19,072 nt of DNA from a virus (Duplodnaviria > Heunggongvirae > Uroviricota > Caudoviricetes), in IMG/VR virus record IMGVR_UViG_2663762908_000007; one strand, given 5' to 3'. Within the stretch, counting starts at the first letter, position 1. Every line of letters begins with the position of its first letter. Positions 352 to 19,072 of the stretch are shown here, piece by piece. Made by a program: the position numbers and the translations under genes. Below the pieces are notes generated by a model that saw nothing but the letters and a program-made list of their open reading frames with translations, searched no databases and had not been told where the DNA came from.

Positions 352-509
352 TTCAGGGATTTGCACGTACGAACAAGTACACTGATATCTTCATAGCCTG
401 CAAAAGTGAGCTGGAATTCAGAAGATACCAGTCGTTCGCCTTTGGCCGCGTTGGCAGTATAGCGGCCCTTAATAAATTTACGGTTTCCCTTAGTGTTATT
501 GTGCCCCAT
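348..509 (-). CDS. small ORF, 53 aa (MGHNNTKGNRKF...), stop overlaps the start of the downstream ORF
   Basis: ATG at 509-507 preceded by AAGGA with about 6 nt spacing. Its TGA stop (350-348) overlaps the ATG at 351-349, suggesting translational coupling. Below the 60-aa cutoff of the supplied track, found by hand translation. Confidence 0.3.
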   Translation of the reverse strand: MGHNNTKGNRKFIKGRYTANAAKGERLVSSEFQLTFAGYEDISVLVRTCKSLK

Positions 510-520
510 ATAAAATCCTT

Positions 521-985: not shown

Positions 986-1100
986 TGCTGCCCCCTGGCT
1001 GATATATCCGGTAACCTGATACTGAGAGTTCGTTAAAGTAACTTTCAGAAATGGCGATACACCGTCAGCCTGGCTGTAAACCCCATAAGGTATAGGTGCT

Positions 1101-1130
1101 ATTCAAGTTAAAGGCCGGAGTTCTCCGGCC
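1101..1130 (-). terminator. candidate intrinsic terminator/stem-loop after the acidic-protein gene
   Basis: Perfect 8-bp GC-rich inverted repeat GGCCGGAG / CTCCGGCC (1113-1120 and 1123-1130) immediately after the stop at 1138, followed on the minus strand by TTTAACTT. The U-tract is short, so strength is uncertain. Confidence 0.4.
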
Positions 1131-1137
1131 TCCTCCT

Positions 1138-1953: not shown

Positions 1954-1962
1954 TGTATTCCC

Positions 1963-3552: not shown

Positions 3553-3567
3553 AACTTTCCCTGTTAT

Positions 3568-3586
3568 GCGCCCCGCACGGGGGCGC
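3568..3586 (-). other. intergenic GC-rich stem-loop between the 205-aa ORF and the sheath-like gene
   Basis: GCGCCCC-gcacg-GGGGCGC, a 7-bp perfect stem, 26 bp after the stop at 3613 and just upstream of the RBS of the 529-aa gene. No clear U-tract, so it may be a processing or attenuation element rather than a terminator. Confidence 0.35.
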
Positions 3587-3612
3587 TATGTTAAACGGAG
3601 AACTTCCCCTGA

Positions 3613-4230
3613 TTACTCAGAGTCACCGGCATCAATCGTGTCGCCGCTTATGAAGTTAAGCCCGCCTTTTTTGGCCATTGTCAGCGTTACACGAGTGAAG
3701 TAATCAGCGCCGTTGCGTGGGTGCATATCGTTGATAGCCGAACCCCACAGCGTGCTACGGTTGACCAGCGCCGGAGTGGTCGGATGCTGGAACGGGATGG
3801 CCGGGACAGCATCACCAGTCACGAAGCCTGCTTTACCCGGATTTTCATCACGGACGTAGCACAGCACATCCATCGAGCTGAACTGAATGTTCTCAGTCGT
3901 TAAGTTCTTACAAATACCAGCAGGTACTTCGTACACTTTCACGTTACCGAACAGGGTACCGATGTAGTGAACATACGGAGTCTGGATATAGTCTTCGGCT
4001 GGCTGGAAGAAATCCTTCGGCAACTGTTTGAAGAAAGATGCTGCATCAGCACCAGCAAACATCCCCATCGCACCAGAAGATTTAACGCGCTCAATAATGT
4101 CGCGATATACAGTCTGGAATTTGCCACGAATGATGGTTGCCCATACATCAAAGGACTGGTTAACCGGCAGAGCGATGTCAAAGGTGTCGGTCGCAAGAGT
4201 GCGCCAGATCATGATGCGAAGACGCAGCAT
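3613..4230 (-). CDS. 205-aa ORF, probably the C-terminal part of a major head protein (P1 gp23-like); in the same frame as the upstream 360-aa ORF, separated only by a TAA
   Basis: ATG at 4230-4228 has AGGA only 1 nt upstream, a poor RBS. The frame is continuous with ORF 4237-5319 except for the TAA at 4239-4237 (...EYLSH * QD MLRLR...). Confidence 0.5.
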   Translation of the reverse strand: MLRLRIMIWRTLATDTFDIALPVNQSFDVWATIIRGKFQTVYRDIIERVKSSGAMGMFAGADAASFFKQLPKDFFQPAEDYIQTPYVHYIGTLFGNVKVYEVPAGICKNLTTENIQFSSMDVLCYVRDENPGKAGFVTGDAVPAIPFQHPTTPALVNRSTLWGSAINDMHPRNGADYFTRVTLTMAKKGGLNFISGDTIDAGDSE

Positions 4231-4236
4231 ATCCTG

Positions 4237-5319
4237 TTAATGAGACAGGTATTCCTTCAGGGTGCGGAACTGTAGGGAACCCAGGTCTAGACCAAATTCA
4301 CGCTGTGCTTCATACGCCGCCTGTACCGTGTGCTCAGCCGCGATAACGAACTGACTTGGGAACAGGGTGTATTTCTTCATTTCGTGGTTGATCAGCGGGA
4401 TCAGCTCAGGAGCGGCTTCAATATTGATTTCCGTCTCAATTGCGATCTCAGTGCCTTTATCCGGCGCTTTGGAGAACGACAGGGCAATCTGACCAATGTT
4501 GTAGTTCAGAGAGCAGGTAACAGTGATTTGCTCACCAGCAGCATTAGTAAACGAGTGAAGTAGGCTGCCGGAACCGTTATCAACAACAGACTTAATACGG
4601 TTAACGTAGATGTTAGTACGACCTTTTCGGATTGGCACATTCTGGCCTTCGAAGTCTTCCATCTTGAAGGTTGCGGTTTTGCTGGTGCCATCGGAGCTTG
4701 CCACCAGCACATAGCGGCGACGTAACTGGCTGTACACACCGACGGATTGCATGTCCAGAACATCACCAGCAGCATAAGAACCAAAAGAGGAACCTGCCAC
4801 GTTAAAGACTTCATAGATGTCGGACTGGTCACGCGTAACCGGAATGAAGGTACACGCATCAGCGGTAGCTGCCCCCAACTGAACAGGCAGGATCATCGCG
4901 AGGAATAAAGGCAGACGCATAACACCGTCAGAAACGCTCATCATCTCTGCTGCGACGGATTCCAGCATCGCTTTATTAGTGGCATCCATGCTATTGCGGG
5001 TGGACTCAATCAGGCAGTTTTCCAGCGTCTGGTGGCAGGAGGTCAGAATTTCCGAACGCGGCATAGATTTATGTGCTGCGGCGTAGTCAGCCAGTGCACT
5101 TGCCCACGCTGTAGCGATTTGAGCGGTGGCATTATCAGAGATACCCGCAAAAATCGGGTCTTTACGTGCAGCTTCAAGGATAGATGCGGCACGCGCGGCA
5201 TCATCTTTAATGAATTGGTTATCAGTACCGAACTGCGCAGTGCTTGCCCAGCCAAGCACAGCTTTAGAGCGTTTTGCGATATCTGCAATACGATTCTGGT
5301 ATTCGCGTAAGTTACTCAA
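4237..5319 (-). CDS. 360-aa ORF, probably the N-terminal part of a major head protein (P1 gp23-like) with an Ala-rich helical N-terminal region
   Basis: TTG start at 5319-5317 with SD AAGGAAGAG about 5 nt upstream. It is the first gene downstream of parS, where P1 carries gene 23. Combined with ORF 3613-4230 it gives about 568 codons, matching a roughly 62 kDa head precursor. Confidence 0.55.
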   Translation of the reverse strand: MSNLREYQNRIADIAKRSKAVLGWASTAQFGTDNQFIKDDAARAASILEAARKDPIFAGISDNATAQIATAWASALADYAAAHKSMPRSEILTSCHQTLENCLIESTRNSMDATNKAMLESVAAEMMSVSDGVMRLPLFLAMILPVQLGAATADACTFIPVTRDQSDIYEVFNVAGSSFGSYAAGDVLDMQSVGVYSQLRRRYVLVASSDGTSKTATFKMEDFEGQNVPIRKGRTNIYVNRIKSVVDNGSGSLLHSFTNAAGEQITVTCSLNYNIGQIALSFSKAPDKGTEIAIETEINIEAAPELIPLINHEMKKYTLFPSQFVIAAEHTVQAAYEAQREFGLDLGSLQFRTLKEYLSH

Positions 5320-5344
5320 TTTACTCTTCCTTAAACATAAGGCA

Positions 5345-5530
5345 CTTGTGTGAATCCCTTTTCGGAAGAGATTTTATTGAAAGTCACTTGTTGACTTTCT
5401 CGCGAAAAGTAATTTTTTAAATTTTTTGTGCGGGGAAGTGGACGGTGAATGCAGGCGTTAAATCGTGGGAATTTCAGTCTGAAATTCTCCTAAAAAACAC
5501 ATGCAAATCATAATGTTAGCAATGAAATTG
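5345..5530. promoter_or_regulatory. parS: candidate parS centromere (ParB binding site) downstream of parB
   Basis: Located where P1 parS lies, directly after parB. Contains the heptamer palindrome GAATTTCAG-t-CTGAAATTC (5469-5487), further TGAAAT/GTGAAT-like heptamers (5350, 5446, 5523), an AT-rich tract (5411-5428) that could be the IHF site, and a second palindrome GAAAGTCA-cttgt-TGACTTTC (5380-5400). Confidence 0.45.
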
Positions 5531-5583
5531 GTGCAGGACATTTTAGGAAGGGGAGGGGCTAACACCACCTCCCACCAGCGGGA

Positions 5584-6549
5584 TTATTCCCCAGCAGACA
5601 TTTTCCCAATGATTTTTTTTATTGCTTCGTCAATTTCAGTTTGCACTTCAGACGGGAGTCTAGAGAACTCGTAGGCGACAACCCGTTTTTTCGGATCGGA
5701 CTTCTTTCGAGCATATTGGCGACGGTCAGAGAAGTCTCGCAGCTTCTCAACCACCACAGATTTAACCGGCGCGGGCTTCAGGCTTTTGCTTTCCGCTTGG
5801 AAGATAGCCAGTATCTTCGCTTTATCCTCTTGCGCGCCCTCAGTCTCTGCAATTCGTTCGCGCACCGTATCAACCAGCTCTTCAATAGGCACGCTTTTAG
5901 CGTTGGCATCCTCGGAGATCTGGAGCAGTAACTGGTAATCTGGCAGGGCGAGATCGCTGGCAACAGGGAAGACAGCAATCATCTCATCCGGCACCGCTGC
6001 CGCCTGGAACGCGCGCGTAACTTTAGCCTTTGAAATGTTCTCAGCGCGGGCGATCTCTTCTTTGGTCATGCTCTTACCATACATAACCTCGAAGCGTTTA
6101 CCCAGTTCGCGCAGGGTGTGTTCGCGGGCTGTCTGGATATCAATGGCCAGCTGGCGTGCATCCGCCAGGCTGATCTCATCTTTCGTCACCAGAATCTCAA
6201 ATTTCGTTTCATTGAAGATACACGCAGCGCGGCGACGTGATCCGTCCAATACCTCAATGCGCTCCCCAACCATACGACCAATAGCCGGGAAGAACTGTTG
6301 CAATTTAATGGTGCGGGAAATATCGCTTACCGACTCAGGGGTGAGCAGAGACTGATCGCGGCCGTTAACTGCCGGGTCAACGAACGTGCGCGACTCAATC
6401 TCACCACTCAGCACAACGGTAAGCAAAAATTTAGCCTGGCGGCCAGATTTTAGGGTAAAGGTTTTGGTGCCTTCACTGCCTTCAAGCATGCGAGCAAACT
6501 CGGAGCTATTCTTGCCCAGCACTCGTCCACGGGAAACTATTTTTTTCAT
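5584..6549 (-). CDS. parB: partition protein ParB (type Ia, P1 family), 321 aa
   Basis: The translation carries the ParB signature EVLDGSRRR and an HTH region, and aligns by eye with P1 ParB but is clearly divergent. It overlaps parA by 4 bp (ATGA). Confidence 0.9.
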   Translation of the reverse strand: MKKIVSRGRVLGKNSSEFARMLEGSEGTKTFTLKSGRQAKFLLTVVLSGEIESRTFVDPAVNGRDQSLLTPESVSDISRTIKLQQFFPAIGRMVGERIEVLDGSRRRAACIFNETKFEILVTKDEISLADARQLAIDIQTAREHTLRELGKRFEVMYGKSMTKEEIARAENISKAKVTRAFQAAAVPDEMIAVFPVASDLALPDYQLLLQISEDANAKSVPIEELVDTVRERIAETEGAQEDKAKILAIFQAESKSLKPAPVKSVVVEKLRDFSDRRQYARKKSDPKKRVVAYEFSRLPSEVQTEIDEAIKKIIGKMSAGE

Positions 6550-7757
6550 GCCGCCTCACCCCTAACAAACTCAATTCGATCAAACACAGCCTTAGTGAAA
6601 CGCTCGGCCTCGGTTCGTGCCTTCTTCAGCGCCTCTGCACTGCCTGGATACGATTGCGGGTTGGCACTGATTACGGTGTCGAAAGACTCGCCGCATCGCT
6701 CAAATCCATCCAGACGAGGCAGAGAAGAGTCCAGAATGTTGCTGGCGTAAACCTCACGCGCAAGGCTGTGTGATGTCTCGTGATCGCGCTTGCCGGTCAT
6801 CTTCGACATAAAACCAATGCTGGCGCTTAAACGCGGTTCTACGCCTTCCTCCTCCAGTTGCTCCAGCATTTCTGGCAGACGGGTGAGATATTTCAGTGTT
6901 GAGTGGAAGTCAACCTGGGCTGGTGGGGTAGGGGTAAGCAGCAAATCGCTGGCCGCCAGACCGTTGAGCAGGAACGGATCCAGGTGTGGGCCGGTATCAA
7001 TAAAGATAAAGTCATAATCATCCGCAACACGATCAATGATATTGCGTCGAAGGATTTCGTACTGATTTTGTCCGGGAAGATGCTCTTCAACCAGCTCTTT
7101 CCATTGGCTGGCAACAAAGCCATCGTCGATAGAGGCTGGAATCACGTCTACGCCAGGAACGATGGTCGGACGAATCACCTCTTTGCGTAGCGTCTCCGCG
7201 TCCAGGTCGTTCAGCATCGCCTGCGCGGCGGTTTCCAGGATGGAACCAATACTGTGAGTATGGTCGAGGAACATTGTGCTGGATGCCTGAGGGTCAAGGT
7301 CAATTACCAGAATGCGCAGATCGTGACGCAGTAAATCCTGATGCACACGCAGAGCGTGCGCCAACGTGACTGTGGAAACCGTTTTGGATACGCCACCCTT
7401 CAGGTTTACGACAAAAATAACGTAAGGCGATTTGTGAATGTCGCGATATTTTGGGATCTTACGGTGGGCATAGATATCAATGACGTTCTGGATGGTCAGC
7501 GCGTACTGTTCAACGTTACCGACCTGTTTCTTGTTGAACTGGTACCCATTATCTTCCATCTCTTTGATGGCCTGCTCCACAATGCGGCGGCTCAGCTTCG
7601 GCAACTTTGCCACAGCGTTACGAGTGAACGTCTGATAATACTCGGTCTGATTGAACTCTTTGCGCTGCTCTTCAATATCCTGACTCATGGCCTTAAGTAA
7701 TGCGCTTGCACGAAGAGCTATGGTGCCGACACCGCCGTAATCGCGTTTCATCATCAT
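6546..7757 (-). CDS. parA: partition ATPase ParA (type Ia, with N-terminal regulatory extension), 403 aa
   Basis: Deviant Walker A NLKGGVSKTVST, and the motifs ILVIDLDPQ and RLDGFERCGESFDTVISANP, typical of the P1 ParA family. Sits upstream of parB. Confidence 0.92.
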   Translation of the reverse strand: MMMKRDYGGVGTIALRASALLKAMSQDIEEQRKEFNQTEYYQTFTRNAVAKLPKLSRRIVEQAIKEMEDNGYQFNKKQVGNVEQYALTIQNVIDIYAHRKIPKYRDIHKSPYVIFVVNLKGGVSKTVSTVTLAHALRVHQDLLRHDLRILVIDLDPQASSTMFLDHTHSIGSILETAAQAMLNDLDAETLRKEVIRPTIVPGVDVIPASIDDGFVASQWKELVEEHLPGQNQYEILRRNIIDRVADDYDFIFIDTGPHLDPFLLNGLAASDLLLTPTPPAQVDFHSTLKYLTRLPEMLEQLEEEGVEPRLSASIGFMSKMTGKRDHETSHSLAREVYASNILDSSLPRLDGFERCGESFDTVISANPQSYPGSAEALKKARTEAERFTKAVFDRIEFVRGEAA

Positions 7758-7866
7758 CTCCTTATCATTTCGTATGAGTGAATTGTACGTTTGATTCTGC
7801 TACGTGCAACTTTCTTTGATTCGTGCGTCAATTATTGCACGTAAAGAAATGGCGATGAGGCTATTA
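7758..7866 (-). promoter_or_regulatory. parAB promoter/operator region (inferred)
   Basis: Intergenic region upstream of parA with the inverted repeat ACGTGCAA (7802-7809) / TTGCACGT (7835-7842). Type Ia ParA proteins autoregulate at an operator overlapping their promoter. Confidence 0.4.
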
Positions 7867-8119
7867 GATGTGTGCTGGAGGGATGATGCAGGACCAGAAT
7901 GTGCGATAGAGGGAAGTCGCATTGAATTATGTGCTGTGGAGGGATCGCTGGTATCAAATATGTGTGCTGGAGGGAAAGGCAGAGAATTACATGTGCACTG
8001 GAGGGAAAAACGGATGGACAGATGTGTGCTGGAGGGAAAGTCTGGGCAAACTGCGGGGCGTCCCCCTCCAGCGCACATCAAAAACAGGAAATTGGACAAG
8101 CCTTCCCTCCAGCACACAC
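7867..8119. repeat. incA: incA-like iteron array downstream of repA (about 8 copies of the P1-type 19-bp iteron, 6 in one orientation and 2 inverted)
   Basis: Copies of GATGTGTGCTGGAGGGAAA or close variants at 7867, 7898 (degenerate), 7928, 7960, 7991 and 8021, and inverted copies (CCCTCCAGC[A/G]CACAT) at 8061 and 8101. The last abuts the repA stop codon. Confidence 0.85.
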
Positions 8120-8980
8120 TTATTCTGGGAGTTTCAGCTTTGGATTGCGAGAATGGACGATTACAAAACTTTCCCGGCCTTTCTTCTCAATTGAACAGTC
8201 GAGATAGCCGATTGTTTTAAGCTGTTCTATCGCTTTCTTAATGATACGGTTTTGCTCGCCAACAGCTGACTGCAAAGCCAGGCGCTCACGGATTCGGGCG
8301 AAAGATAGCGGCAACGGATTCTGCGGAAGGCTTTCGATGAAAGTGTAAATGGCTTGTGCAGCTTCTTTCTTCGGAAGGGCACGCAAGGCGTGGTGTTGCA
8401 ACAGAACGCGATAATCAAGCTGGAACAGCTCCCACAGCTTCGAATCAGCCTCCAGTTCTATCAGATCAAGGTCAGCATCAAAACGCCCGACCTTCAGCAG
8501 ACCAGTCTGATAGCCGCCTTTAGCATCTTTTCCGCGCTTAAAAGCGATACCCTTGTTACGCAAGCGTCCAAGTGATTCATGAATGGTTAAACGCAGTTTC
8601 GCATCCAGACGTTTTGAGGGGAAACCACAGGCTTTAGCGAATTCCTGAAACGATAACTGGATGGTGTTTGAGGACAAGCCGTATTTGCTGAACGCGTAGA
8701 TGACACCGATCCACGTTTTGAAATCAGTATCCATATCGAGTCGAGGACCGGTGATTTTAATATCATCGTAACCCTCGGCTTTAGCTATCTCCAGCTGGGA
8801 AAACGCTTTGGTGGCATCAATCTCTTTACTTTCTCCTTTGCTCTTTGATGGCTTCGGAACGAATACCCCCAAGCGCATCAACGCTACAGGCTGCACAGTG
8901 TTGTTTGAATTAACTGTTAGTTCTTTTGCCTTACTTTCAATGTCTGCGTAAAGAATATCGGATATAAATGATTGATTCAT
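8120..8980 (-). CDS. repA: iteron-binding replication initiator RepA (P1 R-replicon type), 286 aa
   Basis: An ORF of the P1 RepA length, flanked upstream by five direct iterons and downstream by the iteron array, which is the diagnostic incC-repA-incA arrangement. Confidence 0.92.
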   Translation of the reverse strand: MNQSFISDILYADIESKAKELTVNSNNTVQPVALMRLGVFVPKPSKSKGESKEIDATKAFSQLEIAKAEGYDDIKITGPRLDMDTDFKTWIGVIYAFSKYGLSSNTIQLSFQEFAKACGFPSKRLDAKLRLTIHESLGRLRNKGIAFKRGKDAKGGYQTGLLKVGRFDADLDLIELEADSKLWELFQLDYRVLLQHHALRALPKKEAAQAIYTFIESLPQNPLPLSFARIRERLALQSAVGEQNRIIKKAIEQLKTIGYLDCSIEKKGRESFVIVHSRNPKLKLPE

Positions 8981-9036
8981 ATTACTTTTTCCGAATTATG
9001 TGGATAGTTTTTATAAGTGATGATAACTACCCAGGC

Positions 9037-9140
9037 TTTCCCGTCAGCACACATCCTATATCCCGCCAGCACACATTAGCAACCCGTCAGCACACATTTT
9101 TATCCCTCCAGCACACATCGGTTTCCCTCCAGCACACATC
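9037..9140. repeat. incC: incC-like origin iterons (5 direct copies, about 21-bp spacing) containing the repA promoter region
   Basis: CC[C/G][T/C]CAGCACACAT copies at 9037, 9061, 9081, 9101 and 9122, all in the same orientation, immediately upstream of the repA start. Confidence 0.85.
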
Positions 9141-9178
9141 GCGATACACTTCTAAGCCAGACGTGGCGCGGCCTGCAA

Positions 9179-9257
9179 CGATCAGGGATCTATATGGATC
9201 TAATTGGGATCTGTATGGACCTAATTATTGGATCTACTCAGTGGATAATGTGGATAA
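9179..9257. other. oriR core elements: cluster of five GATC (Dam) sites plus two tandem DnaA boxes
   Basis: GATC at 9180, 9187, 9197, 9208 and 9231 within GGATCT-type heptamer repeats. TGTGGATAA (9249-9257) is a perfect DnaA box and AGTGGATAA (9240-9248) has one mismatch. A further TGTGGATAg lies at 8999-9007 between incC and repA. This matches the known P1 oriR architecture. Confidence 0.7.
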
Positions 9258-9260
9258 GTG

Positions 9261-9284
9261 AAAAACCGGCCAACAAAGCCGGTT
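9261..9284 (-). terminator. intrinsic terminator after the truncated gene, insulating oriR
   Basis: On the minus strand AACCGGC-tttgttg-GCCGGTT followed by TTT, a 7-bp stem with a U-run, 15 bp after the stop at 9301-9299. Confidence 0.5.
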
Positions 9285-9298
9285 GGAAGGAAGCTGTA

Positions 9299-9658
9299 TT
9301 ATTCTATGCTTTCGATGAGAAGACCATGTTCATAACATTTAAGCTCATCGCCTTCGTACAGGAATTGGTATCCAATACCACCATCTTCATGGACATTAGG
9401 GAATAACTCATAACTCACTGAAGAGCAAATCACACCAATACAGCGATCAACGCCTTCTCGTTCTTCAGTGCTGAAAAAATCCTCTTCAGTAAGAACATGA
9501 GTACATTGCTCATCAGCATAGGTCGGAAATACATGCTCAATGCAATCCGGGTGTTTTAAACCAAGCTGATCGGCAAGCTCGAAAGCACGACGGTATTGTT
9601 CAGATCCTGGCTTGCCAACAGTGATTTGCTCAATTTTGTAGATTGAAGTCGCTTTGTT
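9299..9658 (-). pseudogene. 5'-truncated ORF (119 codons, no start) interrupted by the IS911-like element
   Basis: Frame open from the IS boundary at 9658 to the TAA at 9301-9299 (...VGKPGSEQYRRAFELADQLGLKHPDCIEHVFPTYADEQC...YEHGLLIESIE). No initiation codon is present because the frame runs into the IS left end at 9659. Absent from the supplied track. Confidence 0.5.
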
Positions 9659-9976
9659 TGAAGTGGCACACTGAATTTGGCCACCTGAACAGAGGTGATA
9701 TGCTCACCTCAGAACAACACAGGTGCTCCAATGAAAAAAAGAAATTTCAGCGCAGAGTTTAAACGCGAATCCGCTCAACTGGTTGTTGACCAGAAATATA
9801 CGGTGGCAGATGCCGCCAAAGCTATGGATGTTGGCCTTTCCACAGTGACAAGATGGGTCAAACAACTGCGTGATGAGCGTCAGGGCAAAACACCAAAAGC
9901 CTCTCCGATAACACCAGAACAAATCGAAATACGTGAGCTGAGGAAAAAGCTACAACGCATTGAAATGGAGAATGAA
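9659..9976 (+). mobile_element. IS911-like (IS3 family) left end: terminal inverted repeat plus the 5' part of orfA
   Basis: Starts with TGAAGTGGCACACTGAATTTGG, the IS3-family terminal TG...CA structure and the IS911 end as I recall it. orfA ([21 protein letters not shown]...) follows at 9731. Identity to IS911 ends at 9976. Confidence 0.8.
9731..9976 (+). CDS. IS3-family transposase OrfA (IS911 InsN-like), 3' end replaced by foreign sequence
   Basis: The translation [82 protein letters not shown] is an HTH plus leucine-zipper OrfA. The track ORF begins 12 codons early at 9695, and its tail ([13 protein letters not shown]) is not OrfA. Confidence 0.75.
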
Positions 9977-10070
9977 TCTACAGCGGCTTTTTTTTTAATA
10001 TGTCCCGTTCGTCGGTAACCCGTTTCAGCTCTTTCTGGAGACGGCGGATCTCGGCCTGAGCATCTGACTG
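9977..10070 (-). mobile_element. fragment of a second, different IS3-family orfA in inverted orientation (contig end)
   Basis: The reverse complement translates to [30 protein letters not shown], the leucine-zipper region of another IS3-family OrfA, joined head-to-head to the IS911 orfA at a shared ATATTAAAAAAAG-like motif. Confidence 0.5.
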
Positions 10071-10099
10071 NNNNNNNNNNTTTCGGCCCCGGTTCTCTT

Positions 10100-10726
10100 T
10101 TATTTCTGCTTCGTTAACGTGTCATAACTGGTCATCAAATTACGATAATCAGGAATGTGGTTAGAGAACAACGTCGCCAGTCCTTCAATATCATTACGCC
10201 AGTCGCGATGCAGCTCGCACGCCACGCCGAACCATGTCATCAATTGCGCACCAGCTTGCGACAAGCGATCCCATGCCGAATGCCGGGTAATTTCATTAAA
10301 GGTCCCTGACGCGTCAGTCACGACAAAGACGTCAAACCCTTCTTCAATGGCTGAAAGCGCCGGGAATGCCACGCAAACTTCGGTTACCACACCGGCAATA
10401 ATTAACTGTTTTTTACCTGTCGCTTTGACAGCTTTTACAAAATCTTCGTTATCCCAGGCGTTAATATTTCCCGGGCGAGCAATGTAAGGTGTATCGGGGA
10501 ATTGTGCTTTCAGTTCTGGAACTAATGGGCCGTTAGGACCGGTTTCAAAACTGGTGGTAAGAATAGTTGGTAAGTTGAAATACTTAGCCAGGTCACCCAG
10601 CGCCAGCACGTTATTTTTAAACTTATCGGGTTCGATATCCCGTACAAGGGAAAGTAAACCAGCCTGGTGATCAACAAGCAAAACGGCAGCATCATTTTTA
10701 TCAAGACGAACATACGGTTTGGTCAT
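10100..10726 (-). CDS. ycaC: isochorismatase-family hydrolase YcaC, 208 aa
   Basis: The translation matches E. coli YcaC as I recall it (MTKPYVRLDKNDAAVLLVDHQAGL...), including the cysteine of the catalytic triad in the VTEVCV region. Confidence 0.9.
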   Translation of the reverse strand: MTKPYVRLDKNDAAVLLVDHQAGLLSLVRDIEPDKFKNNVLALGDLAKYFNLPTILTTSFETGPNGPLVPELKAQFPDTPYIARPGNINAWDNEDFVKAVKATGKKQLIIAGVVTEVCVAFPALSAIEEGFDVFVVTDASGTFNEITRHSAWDRLSQAGAQLMTWFGVACELHRDWRNDIEGLATLFSNHIPDYRNLMTSYDTLTKQK

Positions 10727-11039
10727 CCTCTTCTCCTTTCGAGAGTCAGTGGTACGTCTGAAATCGATCAGACGCGATGCATTGCTCTGAAAGCATAGAC
10801 GGGAAATATGAGTTTGCTGTGACCATGAAATTTTTCGACTGAACGAAGCGTATGAAATTTGTGTTAGTTCAATAAAAACAATCAGATGAGACTAATCATC
10901 TCTTCAGCATTAGCGTTATGAATGAGTAATATAAATCGATAATACCGCCGCTGGGATATCGCGTATTTTCACCCATTGACAATGTTTTTGGCGGTGGCAT
11001 GATGCGCATGAAATTTGAACTTCCTCACGGTTTTAATTC

Positions 11040-12188
11040 ATGTCCACGTATACCCAGCCTGTCATGCTTTTGCTGTCTGGCCTGCTTTTGTTGACTCTGG
11101 CGATTGCGGTGTTAAATACACTCGTGCCGCTTTGGCTCGCCCAGGAACACATGTCCACATGGCAGGTAGGCGTTGTCAGCTCATCCTATTTTACCGGCAA
11201 CCTTGTCGGTACATTGCTGACAGGGTATGTCATTAAGCGCATTGGCTTTAACCGCAGCTATTATCTGGCCTCCTTCATTTTTGCCGCTGGCTGTGCCGGC
11301 CTTGGCCTGATGATTGGATTCTGGAGCTGGTTGGCTTGGCGTTTTGTCGCGGGCGTCGGCTGTGCCATGATTTGGGTGGTTGTTGAGAGCGCGCTGATGT
11401 GCAGTGGGACGTCACGTAACCGTGGGCGTTTGCTTGCTGCGTATATGATGGTTTATTACGTGGGAACGTTTTTAGGCCAGTTACTGGTCAGCAAAGTTTC
11501 AACCGAGCTGATGTCCGTATTGCCGTGGGTTACAGGTTTGACGTTGGCAGGGATCTTACCGCTGTTGTTTACGCGTGTGCTGAATCAGCAGGCTGAAAAC
11601 CATGATTCGACGTCAATTACGTCAATGCTAAAACTCCGTCAGGCGCGGCTTGGCGTGAATGGCTGCATTATCTCAGGAATCGTTCTGGGATCTCTATATG
11701 GCCTGATGCCGCTGTACCTCAATCACAAAGGGGTGAGCAATGCCAGCATTGGTTTCTGGATGGCGGTACTGGTCAGTGCGGGTATCCTTGGACAATGGCC
11801 GATTGGACGTCTGGCGGATAAGTTTGGTCGACTGCTGGTGTTGCGTGTTCAGGTCTTTGTCGTCATTCTCGGCAGTATCGCGATGCTTAGCCAGGCGGCG
11901 ATGGCCCCAGCGTTATTCATCCTCGGTGCCGCTGGCTTTACGCTATATCCGGTGGCGATGGCATGGGCTTGCGAGAAAGTTGAACATCATCAACTGGTGG
12001 CGATGAACCAGGCCTTACTGTTGAGCTATACTGTGGGAAGTCTGCTTGGCCCGTCATTTACCGCTATGCTAATGCAGAATTTCTCCGATAATTTATTGTT
12101 TATCATGATCGCCAGCGTATCGTTTATCTATTTGCTGATGCTGCTGCGCAACGCCGGTCATACGCCGAAACCCGTTGCTCACGTGTAA
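11040..12188 (+). CDS. ycaD: MFS transporter YcaD, 382 aa
   Basis: A 12-TM-like hydrophobic profile, matching E. coli YcaD. Divergent from ycaC as on the E. coli chromosome. Confidence 0.9.
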
Positions 12189-12397
12189 ATGAATTCAAGC
12201 AGAGTGTGAACTTACTGTTTCACACTCTGCTTTTTTGTTTCTTCTATCTGACTTGCTTTATTCCAAATTTTATTCGTTTAAAAATAAAATGTGCAGCAGG
12301 TTATAATTTTGCATTTCGCTATTTCCGCACTTCTTATTTGCCGCGCATAATCCCTCGTTTTACAGATGCCCCTTTAATTTTGGCGAAGGATTTGTCT

Positions 12398-13828
12398 ATG
12401 GCTGGGAATGTTCAGGAAAAACAGTTGCGATGGTACAACATTGCGCTGATGTCTTTTATCACTGTCTGGGGTTTTGGCAACGTTGTTAATAACTATGCCA
12501 ACCAGGGGCTGGTGGTTGTTTTTTCATGGGTGTTTATCTTTGCACTCTATTTCACACCTTATGCGCTAATTGTTGGTCAGTTAGGCTCGACCTTCAAAGA
12601 TGGGAAGGGCGGGGTCAGTACCTGGATTAAACACACGATGGGACCCGGACTGGCTTATCTCGCCGCGTGGACCTACTGGGTGGTGCATATTCCCTATCTG
12701 GCACAAAAACCCCAGGCAATTCTGATTGCGCTCGGTTGGGCGATGAAAGGCGACGGTTCGCTAATCAAAGAATATTCAGTCGTAGCGTTACAGGGGTTAA
12801 CGCTGGTGCTGTTTATCTTCTTTATGTGGGTTGCTTCACGCGGTATGAAATCGCTGAAAATCGTCGGTTCTGTGGCAGGGATTGCTATGTTTGTTATGTC
12901 GCTCCTGTATGTGGCGATGGCGGTAACCGCGCCTGCAATTACTGAAGTGCATATTGCGACCACAAACATTACCTGGGAAACGTTCATTCCTCATATCGAC
13001 TTTACCTACATTACCACTATTTCAATGCTGGTTTTCGCGGTTGGCGGAGCAGAGAAGATTTCTCCTTACGTTAATCAAACGCGCAACCCAGGAAAAGAAT
13101 TTCCAAAAGGGATGTTATGCCTGGCGGTGATGGTTGCGGTTTGTGCCATTCTGGGCTCGCTGGCGATGGGGATGATGTTTGATTCGCGTAATATCCCGGA
13201 TGACTTAATGACCAACGGTCAGTATTACGCCTTTCAGAAGCTGGGCGAGTATTACAACATGGGTAATACTTTAATGGTGATTTACGCCATTGCGAATACC
13301 CTGGGACAAGTAGCGGCGCTGGTATTCTCGATTGATGCCCCGCTTAAAGTGCTATTAGGTGATGCTGACAGCAAATATATTCCAGCCAGTTTATGTCGTA
13401 CCAACGCTTCTGGTACGCCCGTTAATGGCTATTTTCTGACCCTGGTACTGGTGGCGATTCTGATTATGCTGCCGACTCTCGGCATTGGTGATATGAACAA
13501 TCTCTATAAATGGCTGTTGAACCTTAATTCGGTAGTGATGCCGCTGCGTTATTTATGGGTATTTGTTGCATTTATTGCAGTCGTTCGCTTGGCGCAGAAA
13601 TATAAACCAGAATATGTCTTTATTCGTAATAAGCCTCTGGCAATGACCGTCGGGATTTGGTGTTTTGCCTTTACCGCCTTTGCCTGTTTGACGGGGATCT
13701 TCCCGAAAATGGAAGCCTTCACTGCAGAGTGGACCTTCCAGTTGGCGCTGAATGTTGCAACGCCGTTTGTGCTGGTAGGATTAGGACTGATATTCCCGCT
13801 GCTGGCGCGTAAAGCGAATAGTAAATAA
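12398..13828 (+). CDS. ycaM: APC-family amino-acid transporter YcaM, 476 aa
   Basis: The track ORF starts at 12206, but the conserved protein starts at the ATG at 12398 (MAGNVQEKQLRWYNIALMSF...). A polytopic membrane protein. Confidence 0.88.
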   Translation: MAGNVQEKQLRWYNIALMSFITVWGFGNVVNNYANQGLVVVFSWVFIFALYFTPYALIVGQLGSTFKDGKGGVSTWIKHTMGPGLAYLAAWTYWVVHIPYLAQKPQAILIALGWAMKGDGSLIKEYSVVALQGLTLVLFIFFMWVASRGMKSLKIVGSVAGIAMFVMSLLYVAMAVTAPAITEVHIATTNITWETFIPHIDFTYITTISMLVFAVGGAEKISPYVNQTRNPGKEFPKGMLCLAVMVAVCAILGSLAMGMMFDSRNIPDDLMTNGQYYAFQKLGEYYNMGNTLMVIYAIANTLGQVAALVFSIDAPLKVLLGDADSKYIPASLCRTNASGTPVNGYFLTLVLVAILIMLPTLGIGDMNNLYKWLLNLNSVVMPLRYLWVFVAFIAVVRLAQKYKPEYVFIRNKPLAMTVGIWCFAFTAFACLTGIFPKMEAFTAEWTFQLALNVATPFVLVGLGLIFPLLARKANSK

Positions 13829-14069
13829 TTATTGTGGTCGGTGACGCTGACTCTGGCAGATCTGACCCGTTTTTACATAATCGAGAAATGCGCGCAAGCC
13901 GCAGGACATATACTGGCGGTTTGGATAATAGATCTGGAAGCCTGGACGCTCTGTGCTCCAGTCTTCCAGTACACATTCTAAACGACCAGTATCAAGGTAC
14001 TCCTTGATCTGTTCATAGAGCAGATACCCGATACCAGCACCCATCAAAACGGCCTCCAGTTCAGCATCA
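13829..14069 (-). pseudogene. ycaN: 3' remnant (about 80 codons) of the LysR-type regulator gene ycaN, truncated at an IS1 terminus
   Basis: The translation (...LEAVLMGAGIGYLLYEQIKEYLDTGRLECVLEDWSTERPGFQIYYPNRQY...) is a LysR substrate-binding-domain C-terminus. The frame runs directly into the IS1 end at 14070. The gene neighbours ycaM in E. coli. Confidence 0.7.
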
Positions 14070-14134
14070 GGTGATGCTGCCAACTTACTGATTTAGTGTA
14101 TGATGGTGTTTTTGAGGTGCTCCAGTGGCTTCTG
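14070..14134 (+). mobile_element. IS1 terminal inverted-repeat end (contig ends inside IS1)
   Basis: GGTGATGCTGCCAACTTACTGATTTAGTGTATGATGGTGTTTTTGAGGTGCTCCAGTGGCTTCTG is the canonical IS1 terminus. Confidence 0.85.
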
Positions 14135-14144
14135 NNNNNNNNNN

Positions 14145-14277
14145 AGTCGCGGATGAATATGACCAGCCGACGTCCGATATCACGAAGGATAAATGCAGCA
14201 AATGCCTGAGCGGCTGTAAGTTTCGCAATAACGTCGGCAACTTTGGCGGCTTCCTTTCCATTAACAAACTTTCGCAG
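14145..14277 (+). CDS. L: lambdoid tail-tip protein L-like C-terminal fragment (internal to a 133-bp contig)
   Basis: The only open frame gives VADEYDQPTSDITKDKCSKCLSGCKFRNNVGNFGGFLSINKLSQ, a cysteine cluster consistent with the Fe-S-binding C-terminus of lambda gpL. Assignment is from memory only. Confidence 0.45.
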
Positions 14278-14320
14278 NNNNNNNNNNTCCTGAATGATTA
14301 AAGCAGCATAATCCCGCAAG

Positions 14321-14396
14321 GGGTCGTTAGCTCAGTTGGTAGAGCAGTTGACTTTTAATCAATTGGTCGCAGGTTCGAATCCTGCACGACCCACCA
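14321..14396 (+). tRNA. tRNA-Lys (anticodon UUU), complete with CCA
   Basis: GGGTCGTTAGCTCAGTTGGTAGAGCAGTTGACTTTTAATCAATTGGTCGCAGGTTCGAATCCTGCACGACCCACCA is identical to the E. coli tRNA-Lys(UUU) as I recall it. The anticodon loop is CTTTTAA. Confidence 0.95.
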
Positions 14397-14542
14397 GTTT
14401 TAACATCAAACTCAGATGTTAAGCGTGAAGGATAACGTTACGCCAGCAACGGCCCGTAGGGCGAGCGAAGCGAGTCATCCTGCACGAGCCACCAATTTTA
14501 AAGATTGGTTCCGAGTAGAAATCTTTCAGGTAACACCCATAT

Positions 14543-14607
14543 GGGTCGTTAGCTCAGTTGGTAGAGCAGTTGACTTTTAATCAATTGGTCGCAGGTTCGA
14601 ATCCTGC
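14543..14607 (+). tRNA. second tRNA-Lys (UUU) copy, 3' end cut by the N run
   Basis: Identical to the first copy over its first 65 nt and ends at the gap at 14608. The tandem arrangement matches the E. coli lysT-type tRNA operon. Confidence 0.85.
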
Positions 14608-14617
14608 NNNNNNNNNN

Positions 14618-14733
14618 CATCATAGATGCCGCCGTTCATCGCCATCTGCACCTGACCCTGACTATTAATATCCGCCAGCAGAGCATGTAACGTTCCCCAC
14701 GCTTCGCCATTGGCTTTTTGCCAGTACATTTTC
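14618..14733 (-). CDS. unassigned coding fragment, probably prophage-derived
   Basis: Only one of six frames is open across the whole 116-bp contig (KMYWQKANGEAWGTLHALLADINSQGQVQMAMNGGIYD). No confident family assignment. Confidence 0.3.
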
Positions 14734-14743
14734 NNNNNNNNNN

Positions 14744-14971
14744 TGACTGCTCCTGCTCACCGGTCCGGAACACCACCGTGACGCCGGATATATTGGTATT
14801 CCCCTCACTGTCCAGCACCGGCGTACTGTTCAGCAGCACGCTTTTTAATCCGTCCACCGGACCTTCAACCGGCCCTTCGCTGATGGCATCGATCACACTC
14901 AGCAGCTGCGTGGACTTCAGGTTGTCCTTCGCTTCGCGCGGGGTATGCCCCTTACTGCTGCCTTTACCCAT
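14744..14971 (-). CDS. J: lambdoid central tail fibre / host-specificity protein J, N-terminal 76 codons
   Basis: MGKGSSKGHTPREAKDNLKSTQLLSVIDAISEGPVEGPVDGLKSVLLNSTPVLDSEGNTNISGVTVVFRTGEQEQ matches the lambda J N-terminus nearly residue for residue. SD GAGGA lies upstream. Confidence 0.8.
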
Positions 14972-15249
14972 TCCTCACGCTNNNNNNNNNNTATTAACAG
15001 AGACCGTAGCCCGACGGGGAACTCCTTCTGCGAGAGTGTGCGGGAATAATCAAAAACGATGCACACCGGGTTTTTACCGCGTTTATGGTTCGCGGGTTTG
15101 TCCCTCATGCTCGCCAGTCCTGTGCGGGGGTGGAAGAAACAGGACACTTACACAGATTCTTGTGGGCACGATGCTATGCCTTTCTGGATTATCCCGATGC
15201 CATTCATGCAAGGCGTTGTATCAGACGTTCGTCAGAGCTGTCAGGCTGA

Positions 15250-15468
15250 CGGGTCCTCCCGGTGGGGTGGCCTGCCACGGGGCGGGAGCGTCGCGGGTTT
15301 TCGCTATTTATGAAAATTTTCCGGTTTAAGGCGTTTCCGTTCTTCTTCGCCGTAACTTACTGTTTTTATTTAAAACACCCCCTGAAAAGAAAGGAAACGA
15401 CAGGTGCTGAAAACAGGCCTTTTGGCCTCTGTCGTTTCCTTTCTCTGTTTTTGTCCGTGGAATGAACA
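15250..15468 (+). other. cos: lambdoid cos region (cosQ, cosN, cosB) upstream of nu1
   Basis: ACGGGGCGGGAGCGTCGCGGGTTTTCGCTATTTATGAAAATTTTCCGGTTTAAGGCGTTTCCGTTCTTCTTCG... is collinear with the lambda left end, but the 12-nt cohesive-end segment reads GGGCGGGAGCGT here versus GGGCGGCGACCT in lambda as I recall it. Confidence 0.7.
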
Positions 15469-15677
15469 ATGGAAGTCAACAAAAAGCAGCTGGCTGACAT
15501 TTTCGGTGCGAGTATCCGTACCATTCAGAACTGGCAGGAGCAGGGAATGCCCGTTCTGCGAGGCGGTGGCAAGGGTAATGAGGTGCTTTATGACTCTGCC
15601 GCCGCCATAAAATGGTATGCCGAAAGGGATGCTGAAATTGAGAACGAAAAGCTGCGCCGGGAAGTTGAAGAACTGCG
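15469..15677 (+). CDS. nu1: terminase small subunit Nu1, N-terminal fragment
   Basis: MEVNKKQLADIFGASIRTIQNWQEQGMPVLRGGGKGNEVLYDSAAAIKWYAERDAEIENEKLRREVEEL matches lambda Nu1 (winged HTH). Cut by the gap at 15678. Confidence 0.85.
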
Positions 15678-15754
15678 NNNNNNNNNNCGTTCGTGTCCGT
15701 AAAACTGGCGTAATCATGGCCCTTCGGGGCCATTTTCTCTCTGTGGAGGAGTCC

Positions 15755-16124
15755 ATGACGAAAGATGAACTGATTGCCCGTCTTCAGGTGCTGGGTGAGC
15801 AACTGAACCGTGATGTCAGCCTGACGGGGACGAAAGAAGAACTGGCACTCCGTGTGGCAGAGCTGGAAGAGGAGCTTGATGACACGGATGACGCTGCCGG
15901 TCAGGACACATCTGTCAGCCCGGAAAATGCGCTGACCGGACATGAAAATGAGGTTGTATCAGCGCAGCCGGATACCGTGATTGATACGGCTGATCTGGTC
16001 ACGGTTGTGGCACTGGTGACGCTGCATACTGATGCACTTCACGCCACGCGGGATGAGGCTGTGGCATTTGTGCTGCCGGGAACGGCGTTTCGTGTCTCTG
16101 CCGGTGTGGCAGCCGAAATGACAG
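15755..16124 (+). CDS. FI: lambdoid DNA-packaging protein FI, near-complete (3' cut by gap)
   Basis: MTKDELIARLQVLGEQLNRDVSLTGTKEELALRVAELEEELDD... matches lambda gpFI. SD GGAGGA at 15745-15750. Confidence 0.8.
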
Positions 16125-16134
16125 NNNNNNNNNN

Positions 16135-16874
16135 ATGGCACATGGCCTGTCTATAGCTAATTCCGAAGTCAGGACGTTAACCGCCGATACCGATAGCGGG
16201 AAAGATGCAGCGGCAGCACTTGCCGCGCGACTGCTGCAAGCCTCGCGCGAATCTGCCGGAAATACTTATCTTACACATAAAGGTTTCCCGGAACATATTT
16301 GCCATGAGCTGACTTCAGCTCATAAAACCGGTGGGGTGATGTTCCGCCCCGGTGATTTGATCGTCCCGCTCTATAACGCTGACGGGGAGCTGGTGAATAT
16401 TCAGCTTATCAGTGGCAATGGTAGCAAGTGTTTTCTTAAAGGAGGTCAGGTTAAGGAGGCCTATCATCTTATAGAAGGGGGCGGGAGTTCAGTAAGAAGA
16501 ATGTGGATTACGGAAGGCTACGCCACGGCGCTTACCATTCATCATCTGACTGGAGAAGCCGTCATGGTGGCATTTTCGGCGGTCAACTTTCTTTCTCTGG
16601 CCAGCGTTGCCCATAACAAGTATCCGGGGTATCAGCTAATTATTGCAGCGGACCGAGATCTGAATAGTTCAGGCCAGAACAGGGCTGAAGCTGCTGCAAA
16701 AGCGTGTCAGTGTGACATTGTGCTGCCACCGGTTTTTGGTGACTGGAATGATGCGCTTGCCCATTACGGAGAGGAATCCACCCGGAAGGCAATTCTTGAG
16801 GCTTTGAGGCCACATAACGCCAGTCCTTTCGACACGATGAGTGAAGCAGAATTCACAGCGATGAGTGTCAGCGA
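16135..16874 (+). CDS. TOPRIM-domain primase-like protein fragment (satellite-phage or integrative-element type), both ends cut by gaps
   Basis: An open frame across the entire contig with a TOPRIM-like core (MWITEGYATALTIHHLTGEAVMVAFSAVNF ... LIIAADRDLNSSGQNRAEAAAK). Lambda itself has no primase, so this likely comes from a different element. Confidence 0.5.
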
Positions 16875-16884
16875 NNNNNNNNNN

Positions 16885-17359
16885 CGAGAAATAGGTGTTC
16901 TGTTTGCCGTTATCTGTACTTGCTGCCGTGGGCGTCCTGGCTTTCGGTGCCAGCATCTGCGCCACTCCGCCCAGGATCATACTGGCCCCTGCCGCATACA
17001 TGCCCGATACAGCCGCGGCACCCAGCCAGCCCACAGGGTTCCACCATGCCACCGCAATCAGCGCCGCCCCCAGCACCACCTGAAACACACCGCCACTTTT
17101 AGCTCCCGCCAGACGCGGCACGATGTGGATCACGGCACCATTTGCCAGCGGCTCATTAAGACGGGCAGACAATTCGGTTTCACCTGCATCACGCCCGGCA
17201 ATGCGTACCTGGTACCAGCCGTCGCTCAGTTTCTGACGAAACGCCGGGTTCTGCATGGCCAGCGCCCGGATGGCTTCGGACCCCGTTTTCACTCGAAGGT
17301 CGATGCGGCGGCCAAATCGTTGTAAATCCCCGTAAAGGCAGATGCGTGCCATGCCCGGT
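16885..17359 (-). CDS. I: lambdoid tail assembly protein I fragment
   Basis: (PG)MARICLYGDLQRFGRRIDLRVKTGSEAIRALAMQNPAFRQKLSDGWYQVRIAGRDAG... matches lambda gpI. Both ends lie at gaps. Confidence 0.8.
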
Positions 17360-17369
17360 NNNNNNNNNN

Positions 17370-17550
17370 TCCGCCGATGCTGATCCCCGCATAGTCATCA
17401 TCGCAGATTTCAATAACATCACCCGGCACATGGCGAAGCCCTTCGGCACCCACGCTGAAATCCACGGTCTGCGTCTCCAGCAGCTCCGTTTTAATCAGCC
17501 ACAGCCCGGCGCGGTGTGCCTGCCCCCGGCTGGTACAGCCAAAGGCATCC
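17370..17550 (-). CDS. J: lambdoid J protein internal fragment
   Basis: DAFGCTSRGQAHRAGLWLIKTELLETQTVDFSVGAEGLRHVPGDVIEICDDDYAGISIGG matches an internal segment of lambda J. Confidence 0.75.
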
Positions 17551-17560
17551 NNNNNNNNNN

Positions 17561-17822
17561 TGTCGGCAACCTGTACCGCCTGATGCGGGGCTATGCGGAA
17601 GGTGGTTATGTGGGCGGTGCCGGAAGTCCGGCGCAGATGCGGCGGGCTGAAGGCATTAATTTTAATCAGAACAATCACGTGGTGATTCAGAACGACGGTA
17701 CGAATGGTCTGCCAGGTCCACAGATGATGAAGGCGGTGTATGACATGGCCCGCAAGGGTGCCCGTGATGAAATCCAGGCACAGATGCGCGATGGTGGTCT
17801 GTTCTCCGGAGGTGGACGATGA
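17561..17822 (+). CDS. H: lambdoid tape-measure protein H, C-terminal fragment
   Basis: ...VGNLYRLMRGYAEGGYVGGAGSPAQMRR...AVYDMARKGARDEIQAQMRDGGLFSGGGR followed by a stop that overlaps the M start (ATGA), as in lambda H-M. Confidence 0.75.
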
Positions 17823-17974
17823 AAACCTTCCGCTGGAAAGTGAAACCCGGTATGGATGTGGCTTCGGTCCCTTCTGTAAGAAAGGTGCGCTTTGGTGATG
17901 GCTATTCTCAGCGAGCGCCTGCCGGGCTGAATGCCAACCTGAAAACGTACAGCGTGACGCTTTCTGTCCCCCGT
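17819..17974 (+). CDS. M: lambdoid minor tail protein M, N-terminal fragment
   Basis: MKTFRWKVKPGMDVASVPSVRKVRFGDGYSQRAPAGLNANLKTYSVTLSVPR matches the lambda gpM N-terminus. Confidence 0.8.
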
Positions 17975-17984
17975 NNNNNNNNNN

Positions 17985-18185
17985 ACAGTTCACCGACGTG
18001 GCCACGCAGCTTGCAGGCGGGCAAAGTCCGTGGCTGATCCTGCTGCAACAGGGGGGGCAGGTGAAGGACTCCTTCGGCGGGATGATCCCCATGTTCAGGG
18101 GGCTTGCCGGTGCGATCAACCTGCCGATGGTGGGGGCCACCTCGCTGGCGGTGGCGACCGGTGCGCTGGCGTATGCCTGGTATCA
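17985..18185 (+). CDS. H: lambdoid tape-measure protein H, internal fragment
   Basis: QFTDVATQLAGGQSPWLILLQQGGQVKDSFGGMIPMFRGLAGAINLPMVGATSLAVATGALAYAWY is a tape-measure-type segment consistent with lambda H. Confidence 0.7.
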
Positions 18186-18517
18186 NNNNNNNNNNGAACA
18201 TAATTCCCCGCACGTAAGCGTAACTTTTGCGGCAAATCGTCACTTTTCAGAATCCATAAAGGTCATTGCTATTTTCTGATAGTTGCTGGGTAAACGTGAT
18301 GTTTCCATTCGCGATATAAATACGAGGTACTGCGCCATGGTGTGACTGATCACGTTAAAATATTCCGGATTGACGCTGGGAAGGGTTTCAACATGCGGCT
18401 CTGCCCCCGTTGCCTACTTTATTGTCTTTCGCGAGTTGTACCCAGGTCCCACCATCGGTATCTAACATTCCCCACATTATTACGCTTTCTGCCGAACGTG
18501 ATTTTTATAGAAATCTA

Positions 18518-19072
18518 TCAATTCATTTTTCCTGTGGCATAAAGTTTATCTTTCACATCCTGCCGAACGCGGGTCTTGTACCCCCCATTGTGAAGATCTT
18601 CATACGGAGAAAAAGAATCTTTACTCCACCCCAGCAGCACTTTATCGCCAGGCATAAAATGCACATGCAGAAAATCTTCTCCCCATTCTCTTTTGGGGAG
18701 AGGTAACGTCATATTCCGTTTCTCCAGACGCATTCCAGCATTATACTGTGTACGAGTAGTACTTAATGTCCAGATAACCTCTGCCGTATCCCCACTAACA
18801 TCACCACAACAGGTTGTTGAACCGCCACCATTTGCAAAAGCATTCGCGCCCGCCACGCCGTTAACACTGAATCCCAGTATCGGGCGGTCAATTTCACTGT
18901 GGATTTCCAGAATCACTCCACCTCTTGGTCCTCCCCATACTGCCTGTCCTATATTCCACAACACGACCAGTACCGGAACGACAATTAACGTCCGCCATAC
19001 CCAGCGCCCCCACCGGGCATAACCGCGCGTAAGCTTTTGGTCAAATTTTTCCAGTTGGGTAAATAGCCCCAT
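18518..19072 (-). CDS. hypothetical membrane-anchored protein (184 aa visible; true start may lie beyond the window edge)
   Basis: ORF begins with ATG exactly at the window end. It has a hydrophobic segment TLIVVPVLVVLWNI after a basic N-terminus, a Gly-rich region and a TTCCGD motif. No family assigned with confidence. Confidence 0.45.
   Translation of the reverse strand: MGLFTQLEKFDQKLTRGYARWGRWVWRTLIVVPVLVVLWNIGQAVWGGPRGGVILEIHSEIDRPILGFSVNGVAGANAFANGGGSTTCCGDVSGDTAEVIWTLSTTRTQYNAGMRLEKRNMTLPLPKREWGEDFLHVHFMPGDKVLLGWSKDSFSPYEDLHNGGYKTRVRQDVKDKLYATGKMN

Follow-up and report, generated by a model that had tools for sequence, protein, structure and literature searches.

Fourteen segments separated by fixed 10-N spacers: a record classed as viral is almost certainly a slice of a concatenated Escherichia coli draft assembly

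The window analyzed here, by which we mean the whole 19,072-nt stretch taken from the IMG/VR virus record IMGVR_UViG_2663762908_000007 (Caudoviricetes), begins with a block derived from the phage-plasmids P1/P7, continues with the yca locus of the Escherichia coli chromosome and ends in a series of small segments, eight of which are lambda-like. Thirteen N runs, every one exactly 10 nt long, divide it into 14 segments (s1–s14; Table 1) of 10070, 4054, 133, 320, 116, 238, 686, 437, 740, 475, 181, 414, 201 and 877 nt, respectively. The initial annotation had read the interval 10071-18195, which extends from the first through the last of these spacers, as a concatenation of 14 contigs with thirteen equal runs between them, and counting in the window gave the same numbers. 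Minus-strand open reading frames (ORFs) lie at both window ends, with a stop codon at the start and a start codon at the end; the window was thus cut at gene boundaries, and s1 and s14 are incomplete contigs. A gene or tRNA is cut at one end or both in 11 of the 12 small segments, the exception being s14, which is cut by the window end and is the only one of them with a whole ORF. The gene parts absent from the small segments are too large to fit into 10 nt.

Table 1 Segments and N spacers of the window, with strand and closest match or detection
Feature	Coordinates	Strand	Content	Closest match or detection
s1	1-10070	-	P1/P7-derived block and terminal fragment of an IS3-family insertion sequence (9659-10070, ~410 nt)	
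s2	10081-14134		ycaC(-), ycaD(+), ycaM(+), 3' part of truncated ycaN(-)	100% to many E. coli chromosomes
s3	14145-14277	+	3' end of L-like minor tail gene	lambda 13993-14124 (+) 97.7%; L37 prophage 99.2%
s4	14288-14607	+	lysT-valT tRNA array piece	ARAGORN, Rfam; 100% matches to two parts of 13P484A array
s5	14618-14733	-	Internal 116 nt of core chromosomal gene yigE	100% match
s6	14744-14981	-	Start of J-like tail tip gene and 10 nt upstream	lambda 15729-15495 (-) 95.7%
s7	14992-15677	+	Prophage right-end/left-end joint: right-end DNA, cos region, 5' part of nu1	
s8	15688-16124	+	E-like major capsid 3' end, most of FI	lambda 7136-7574 93.4%; Packaging_FI E=5e-48
s9	16135-16874	+	Internal 740 nt of P4-like satellite primase gene, not lambdoid	Toprim_3 E=1.6e-13
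s10	16885-17359	-	K/I-like tail assembly fragment	lambda 15302-14805 72.6%; L37 prophage 100%; Lambda_tail_I E=2e-23
s11	17370-17550	-	Internal J fragment	lambda 16982-16803 93.3%; L37 prophage 100%
s12	17561-17974	+	H (tape measure) 3' end, 5' part of M	lambda 12843-13255 84.9%
s13	17985-18185	+	Internal H fragment	lambda 10763-10963 99.5%
s14	18196-19072	-	Chromosomal DUF3304 gene (18518-19072) and downstream DNA	99.9% to many chromosomes; DUF3304 profile match
Spacers 1-7	10071-10080, 14135-14144, 14278-14287, 14608-14617, 14734-14743, 14982-14991, 15678-15687	unstranded	10 N each	
Spacers 8-13	16125-16134, 16875-16884, 17360-17369, 17551-17560, 17975-17984, 18186-18195	unstranded	10 N each	

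The window corresponds to positions 1,826,855-1,845,926 of the whole-genome shotgun (WGS) record JRRP01000037.1 (GCA_001413455.1, NCBI; 3,221,730 bp), with which 13,318 overlapping nt were identical. The spacer pattern extends beyond the window in this record: all 15 runs within 27 kb were 10 nt long, as were all 13 in the window itself. The s14 contig extends 197 nt past the window end, with the next 10-N run 198 nt after that end, and it is followed in the record by a contig with bcsE'FG and then by one with yjbEFGH, an arrangement that is non-syntenic.

Comparison with closed genomes revealed that segments adjacent in the window belong to different replicons or to distant loci. The P1-like and yca identities proposed in the initial annotation were both confirmed, with 98.2% identity to P1 over 96% of s1 and 100% identity of s2 to E. 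coli chromosomes; spacer 1 joins a plasmid segment to a chromosomal one. In FAM21845, s2 lies at 1,015,985 and s4 at 851,894, 164 kb apart (153 bp in the window). The segments s4 and s14, separated by 3.6 kb in the window, are 3.35 Mb apart in 13P484A (777,849 and 4,126,766) and 3.19 Mb apart in PCN061 (773,344 and 3,964,475). Mapping of the small contigs to closed E. coli genomes, which had been suggested as a check, gave no colinear placement: the stretch 14145-19072 was colinear in none of 5,426 such genomes, the best single place covering 22%, and in none of 50,697 phage records, the best place there covering 18%. No window junction was present in the 5,426 closed genomes, and a junction-spanning pattern gave 0 matches in the viral contig and genome contig collections. 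Among the PLSDB plasmid matches listed, none joined s1 to the yca locus; the best coverage there was 70%, composed of s1 and a 65-nt IS1 end.

The order of the lambda-like segments was likewise non-genomic. Their lambda coordinates were obtained by local BLAST against lambda, which agreed for all eight with the earlier assignment of L, J, cos-Nu1, FI, I, internal J, H-M and H fragments in scrambled order on both strands. In window order they start at lambda positions 13993(+), 15729(-), 1(+), 7136(+), 15302(-), 16982(-), 12843(+) and 10763(+), and no junction fits a 10-nt gap. Even neighbours on the same strand are either in reversed order (s10 before s11, s12 before s13) or, in the case of s7 and s8, separated by 6.7 kb.

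Other assemblies provided an independent view of the s1 contig. A 205-aa protein that results from a nonsense change at window position 4239 was found in a number of NCBI assemblies whose WGS records are megabase-sized. Eight of these sister assemblies contain a P1-like block 100% identical to s1, between 10-N runs. The neighbours of this block across the spacers vary among the sisters (narJI; integrase and fhu; fadL and nlpD-pcm-surE; wzyE and usher-nhaR; others), and the ends of the block contig differ by up to 66 nt. In one sister record, JRRJ01000004.1, no N follows the IS3 end; the sequence runs on into Dyp-peroxidase and encapsulin genes and matches a closed plasmid from strain CH425 colinearly over 12,635 nt at 99.77% identity, so that window position 10070 is really followed by plasmid DNA and not by ycaC. 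The window thus gives no evidence for linkage of P1-like DNA to the yca locus, and the earlier caution that the P1-like, yca and prophage pieces need not be linked holds in view of the different replicons and distant loci, the variable sister neighbours and the lack of any colinear closed genome. In three of the eight sister records, the s1 block and a spacer were followed by a common contig with a truncated usher gene, nhaR, nhaA, hok and an IS4-family transposase (~14300-20600), which points to a deterministic concatenation rule, though not to physical adjacency. Searches with the WGS prefixes and the assembly accession returned nothing relevant in the literature searched.

Many ORFs read across the spacers. 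The stretch 14044-19072 has 27 mechanical ORFs with a length of 60 aa or more, 18 of which cross at least one spacer, and the source record's own gene calls include at least seven genes in the window that read through a spacer. The initial annotation had dismissed ORFs running through X residues as not real; two of them, 16669-17352(-) and 15755-16156(+), were looked up in an index of 153 billion genes, and each occurred in exactly one contig, that of JRRP01000037.1. A 227-aa product consists of a real I-protein fragment fused via XXXX to the antisense of the primase fragment. ORFs through the spacers are thus chimeras of two unrelated fragments joined by XXXX, and are artefacts. A further spacer-crossing ORF of 396 aa (16135-17325) was absent from the gene index, probably reflecting other boundaries chosen by the source gene caller. 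XXXX-containing chimeric proteins, such as those of 227 and 133 aa, have already entered a public protein collection, with JRRP01000037.1 as their sole source.

Segment ends were located in repeats or inside genes. Three contigs end within a repeat, namely an IS3-family element (s1), IS1 (s2) and tRNA-Lys (s4), and a comparison of all pairs of segment ends in both orientations detected no overlaps of 12 nt or more. At two of these independent ends, the contig enters a known repeat (IS1 at 14070-14134, tRNA-Lys at 14543-14607) and stops after exactly 65 nt, which resembles the mark left by a k-mer assembler whose k is near 65.

We regard it as almost certain that the window is a slice of a pseudo-molecule, in which contigs were arbitrarily strung together with fixed 10-N spacers, and not a real genomic feature. 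This reading draws on direct observations: the constant spacer, the identities and map positions of the segments, their non-colinearity, the neighbours that differ among sister records and the true continuation of s1. The procedure behind the record is what we infer from them. An E. coli isolate would have been assembled as a draft from short reads and deposited as a few megabase-sized WGS records, for which separate contigs were presumably strung together with a fixed 10-N spacer and without regard to physical order or orientation. The contig breaks would lie at the usual assembler sites, that is, at insertion sequences (IS; s1, s2), in the tandem tRNA array (s4) and in multi-copy mosaic lambdoid prophage genes. 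Since the joins are arbitrary, gene neighbourhoods across the spacers are biologically meaningless.

The reason why each small contig is short is likewise deduced, and here the initial explanation by collapsed or diverged lambdoid repeats stood only in part. Such collapse or divergence is plausible as the cause of the prophage contigs, and the J-start piece s6 fits it, being present at a median of 2 places, and at most 7, in a closed genome; repeats also explain the tRNA-array contig s4. The explanation did not extend to the contigs with yigE (s5), the P4-like primase (s9) and DUF3304 (s14), which are single-copy in closed genomes. Four segments were beyond the earlier gene list (the s4 tRNA array, s5 yigE, s9 P4-like primase and s14 DUF3304), none of them lambdoid. 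Collapsed lambdoid repeats as the source of all short contigs were accordingly rejected, with four of the contigs non-lambdoid and three single-copy. Something else must have fragmented s5, s9 and s14; low coverage, a duplication specific to the strain and a minor variant are candidates.

Several points weigh against a purely arbitrary concatenation. The contigs with yigE, the primase and DUF3304 are single-copy, so that repeats alone leave their fragmentation unexplained; the contig order is partly non-random, with the eight lambdoid pieces clustering; s5 and s14 share a ~7-kb region; and three sisters share one neighbour of the s1 block. The evidence, moreover, consists of sequence mapping and comparison of deposited records. 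Some ordering rule exists, perhaps assembler numbering or partial reference guidance, and it does not reflect adjacency.

Part of the same evidence could be taken to mean that the N runs are genuine paired-end scaffold gaps, with 10 N as the minimum written for small or negative estimates and with supported order and orientation. In some scaffolders, the smallest gap written is 10 N; in addition, one part of the record has the lambdoid pieces clustered together, and s5 and s14 are 6.6 kb apart on the same strand in the closed genome 214-4. However, all 15 gaps were exactly 10 N, and the order of s5 and s14 is reversed relative to their orientation. In closed genomes, neighbouring pieces map to different replicons or to sites separated by distances from 164 kb to more than 3 Mb, the flanks are non-colinear (22% at best for 14145-19072 in the 5,426 closed genomes), and the lambda pieces are misordered and on mixed strands, with kilobases of gene absent between neighbours. 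The s1 contig, moreover, has different neighbours in the sisters and a different, N-free continuation in one of them. We consider true scaffolding very improbable on these grounds.

Two other explanations treat the window as contiguous DNA. If the N runs each masked 10 real bases, as their shortness and equal size could suggest, the flanks would be 10 nt apart in some reference, yet they are so in none: s12 stops at lambda 13255 and the next segment, s13, begins at 10763, s1 is plasmid DNA and s2 chromosomal, and the ends of the s1 block vary by up to 66 nt among sisters. The mapping refutes this explanation, which retains practically no probability. Scarcely more credible is a real, rearranged graveyard of prophage and IS fragments beside the yca locus with the P1-derived block. 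Degraded lambdoid remnants with scrambled genes do occur in E. coli genomes, one closed-genome match has L and DNA-packaging genes within 2.3 kb, and IS elements are present at the ends of s1 and s2. But each breakpoint coincides exactly with an N run, and the core gene yigE and an essential tRNA array would be shattered; the junctions occur in 0 of 5,426 closed genomes, and the junction ORFs are confined to one record even though at least eight sisters share an identical P1-like block.

The concatenated arrangement resembles known fixed-N pseudo-molecules in its constant spacer, in the mixture of chromosome, plasmid and prophage contigs within one record, in contig ends at IS, tRNA and prophage repeats and in variable sister neighbours. 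It differs from them in being an ordinary WGS record with no warning in the sequence itself, and in an ordering that seems partly deterministic. With paired-end scaffolds that have sized gaps it shares N runs between contigs in one record; in contrast to those, the window gaps are invariant, the flanks are non-colinear with closed relatives and the junctions are not reproduced in sisters.

The biological interest of the window is low, and its value lies in a data-quality warning. In a 3.2-Mb public WGS record, as in its sister records, contigs of plasmid, chromosomal and prophage origin are mixed, with easily overlooked 10-N spacers between them, and methods that use context (defence-island scans, prophage callers, synteny, guilt-by-association) meet false neighbourhoods there, such as P1 repA beside ycaC or a tail gene adjoining a tRNA array. 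Assemblies to be split at N runs before context analysis include at least JRRJ, JRRN, JRRP, JRRZ, JRSB, JRSD, JRSG, JRSK and JRSN.

Within s1, nt 1-9658 had 98.2% identity to P1 and 97.8% to P7, and the nearest closed relative was the 78-kb plasmid of strain CH425 (99.8%). The gene order is tail tube, pmgG-like, upf54.2, sheath, gene-23-like, parS, parB, parA, incA, repA, oriR and upfA, and includes the P1 replication and partition module (parS, parB, parA, incA, repA, oriR) at ~98% identity. The ORF 9695-10018 matches HTH_Tnp_1 (IS3-family orfA), and nt 9659-9976 recur elsewhere in the CH425 plasmid. In that closed plasmid and in the sister record JRRJ01000004.1, the block is flanked by IS421, IS3 and IS1 and by non-phage cargo, and the cargo beside it comprises gadC, Dyp peroxidase, encapsulin, rpoH, sHSP20 and clpK. 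A nonsense change at window position 4239 (A; CH425 has C) splits a 568-aa gene-23-like ORF into ORFs of 360 aa and 205 aa, and the tail-tube ORF, at 1-366, is shorter than its P7 counterpart of 510 nt.

Compared with the P1/P7 phage-plasmids (Punavirus), s1 keeps the parS-parB-parA-incA-repA-oriR series and the adjacent tail and head genes in P1 order at ~98% identity, but it is a ~9.7-kb block flanked by IS and non-phage cargo in the CH425 plasmid and the sister, with a nonsense change in the gene-23-like ORF. Because of the IS and non-phage flanks and the nonsense change in a structural gene, s1 looks like a P1-derived replicon remnant rather than a whole P1 prophage, as far as sequence comparison can tell. 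We lean slightly toward the view that this ~9.7-kb P1-derived replication and partition module, with its decaying tail and head genes, is the replicon of an IS-rich stress-cargo plasmid that is fixed in a clone of at least nine deposited isolates. If so, s1 would exemplify a phage-plasmid turned plasmid; the window junctions stay artefacts regardless.

The eight lambda-like fragments resemble the lambda morphogenesis region (nu1 to J) in being 73-99.5% identical to its nu1/cos, E/FI, H, M, L, K/I and J parts. They differ from it in being 133-686-nt scraps in scrambled order on both strands, with chromosomal and P4-like pieces interspersed. They do not form an intact lambdoid prophage, for which a co-directional series nu1...FI...H-M-L-K-I-J of complete ORFs would be expected: all of their genes are truncated, and both the order and the strands are scrambled. 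Compared with one prophage, L37, neighbouring pieces were from 96.6% to 100% identical, and the pieces may stem from more than one prophage.

Nucleotides 289-686 of s7 aligned with lambda 1-399 (+) at 96.2% identity. The cohesive end of lambda, GGGCGGCGACCT, was not found even when 1 mismatch was allowed. The cohesive-end 12-mer at 15280-15291 in s7, aligned to lambda base 1, is GGGCGGGAGCGT and differs from lambda GGGCGGCGACCT at 4 of 12 positions, and the cosB/nu1 region beside it is ~96% identical to lambda. From this alignment, GGGCGGGAGCGT is a variant cosN in one lambdoid prophage of the strain.

In s2, the chromosomal match breaks at segment nt 3989/3990, and the remaining 65 nt (14070-14134 of the window) form the end of an IS1 that has inserted in ycaN. 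The gene, which encodes a LysR-family regulator and in which a LysR_substrate remnant was detected, is thus interrupted by IS1 at 14069/14070 in the isolate. IS1 in ycaN was also observed in the closed genomes FAM21845 and YPE10, with a match that is non-colinear with the s2 contig.

In the tRNA-array piece s4, tRNA-Lys(UUU) occupies 14321-14396; the segment also has an RtT element and, cut by the contig end, 65 nt of another tRNA-Lys. The lysT-valT array to which it belongs sits between cpoB and nadA, and the 76-nt tRNA-Lys has five copies within ~1 kb in the 13P484A array. The segment joins the spacer before the last tRNA-Lys of the array to the spacer after an earlier copy, an order absent from closed 13P484A; either the strain has an additional repeat unit or the assembler made a false join across the 76-nt tRNA-Lys repeat.

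The primase fragment s9 matched strain S21 at 99.3% identity, within a primase gene of 2,334 nt that adjoins psu, ogr/delta and icd-like genes; this variant was present in only 231 of the 5,426 closed genomes. The strain behind the window thus carries a P4-like satellite element. The yigE piece s5 was present in 5,307 of the 5,426 genomes, with a median of one place each, and the DUF3304 gene of s14 is located between cyaY and lptM/dapF in closed genomes. The segments s5 and s14 originate from one ~7-kb chromosomal region, where they lie 6.6 kb apart on the same strand in closed 214-4, and their order is reversed in the window.

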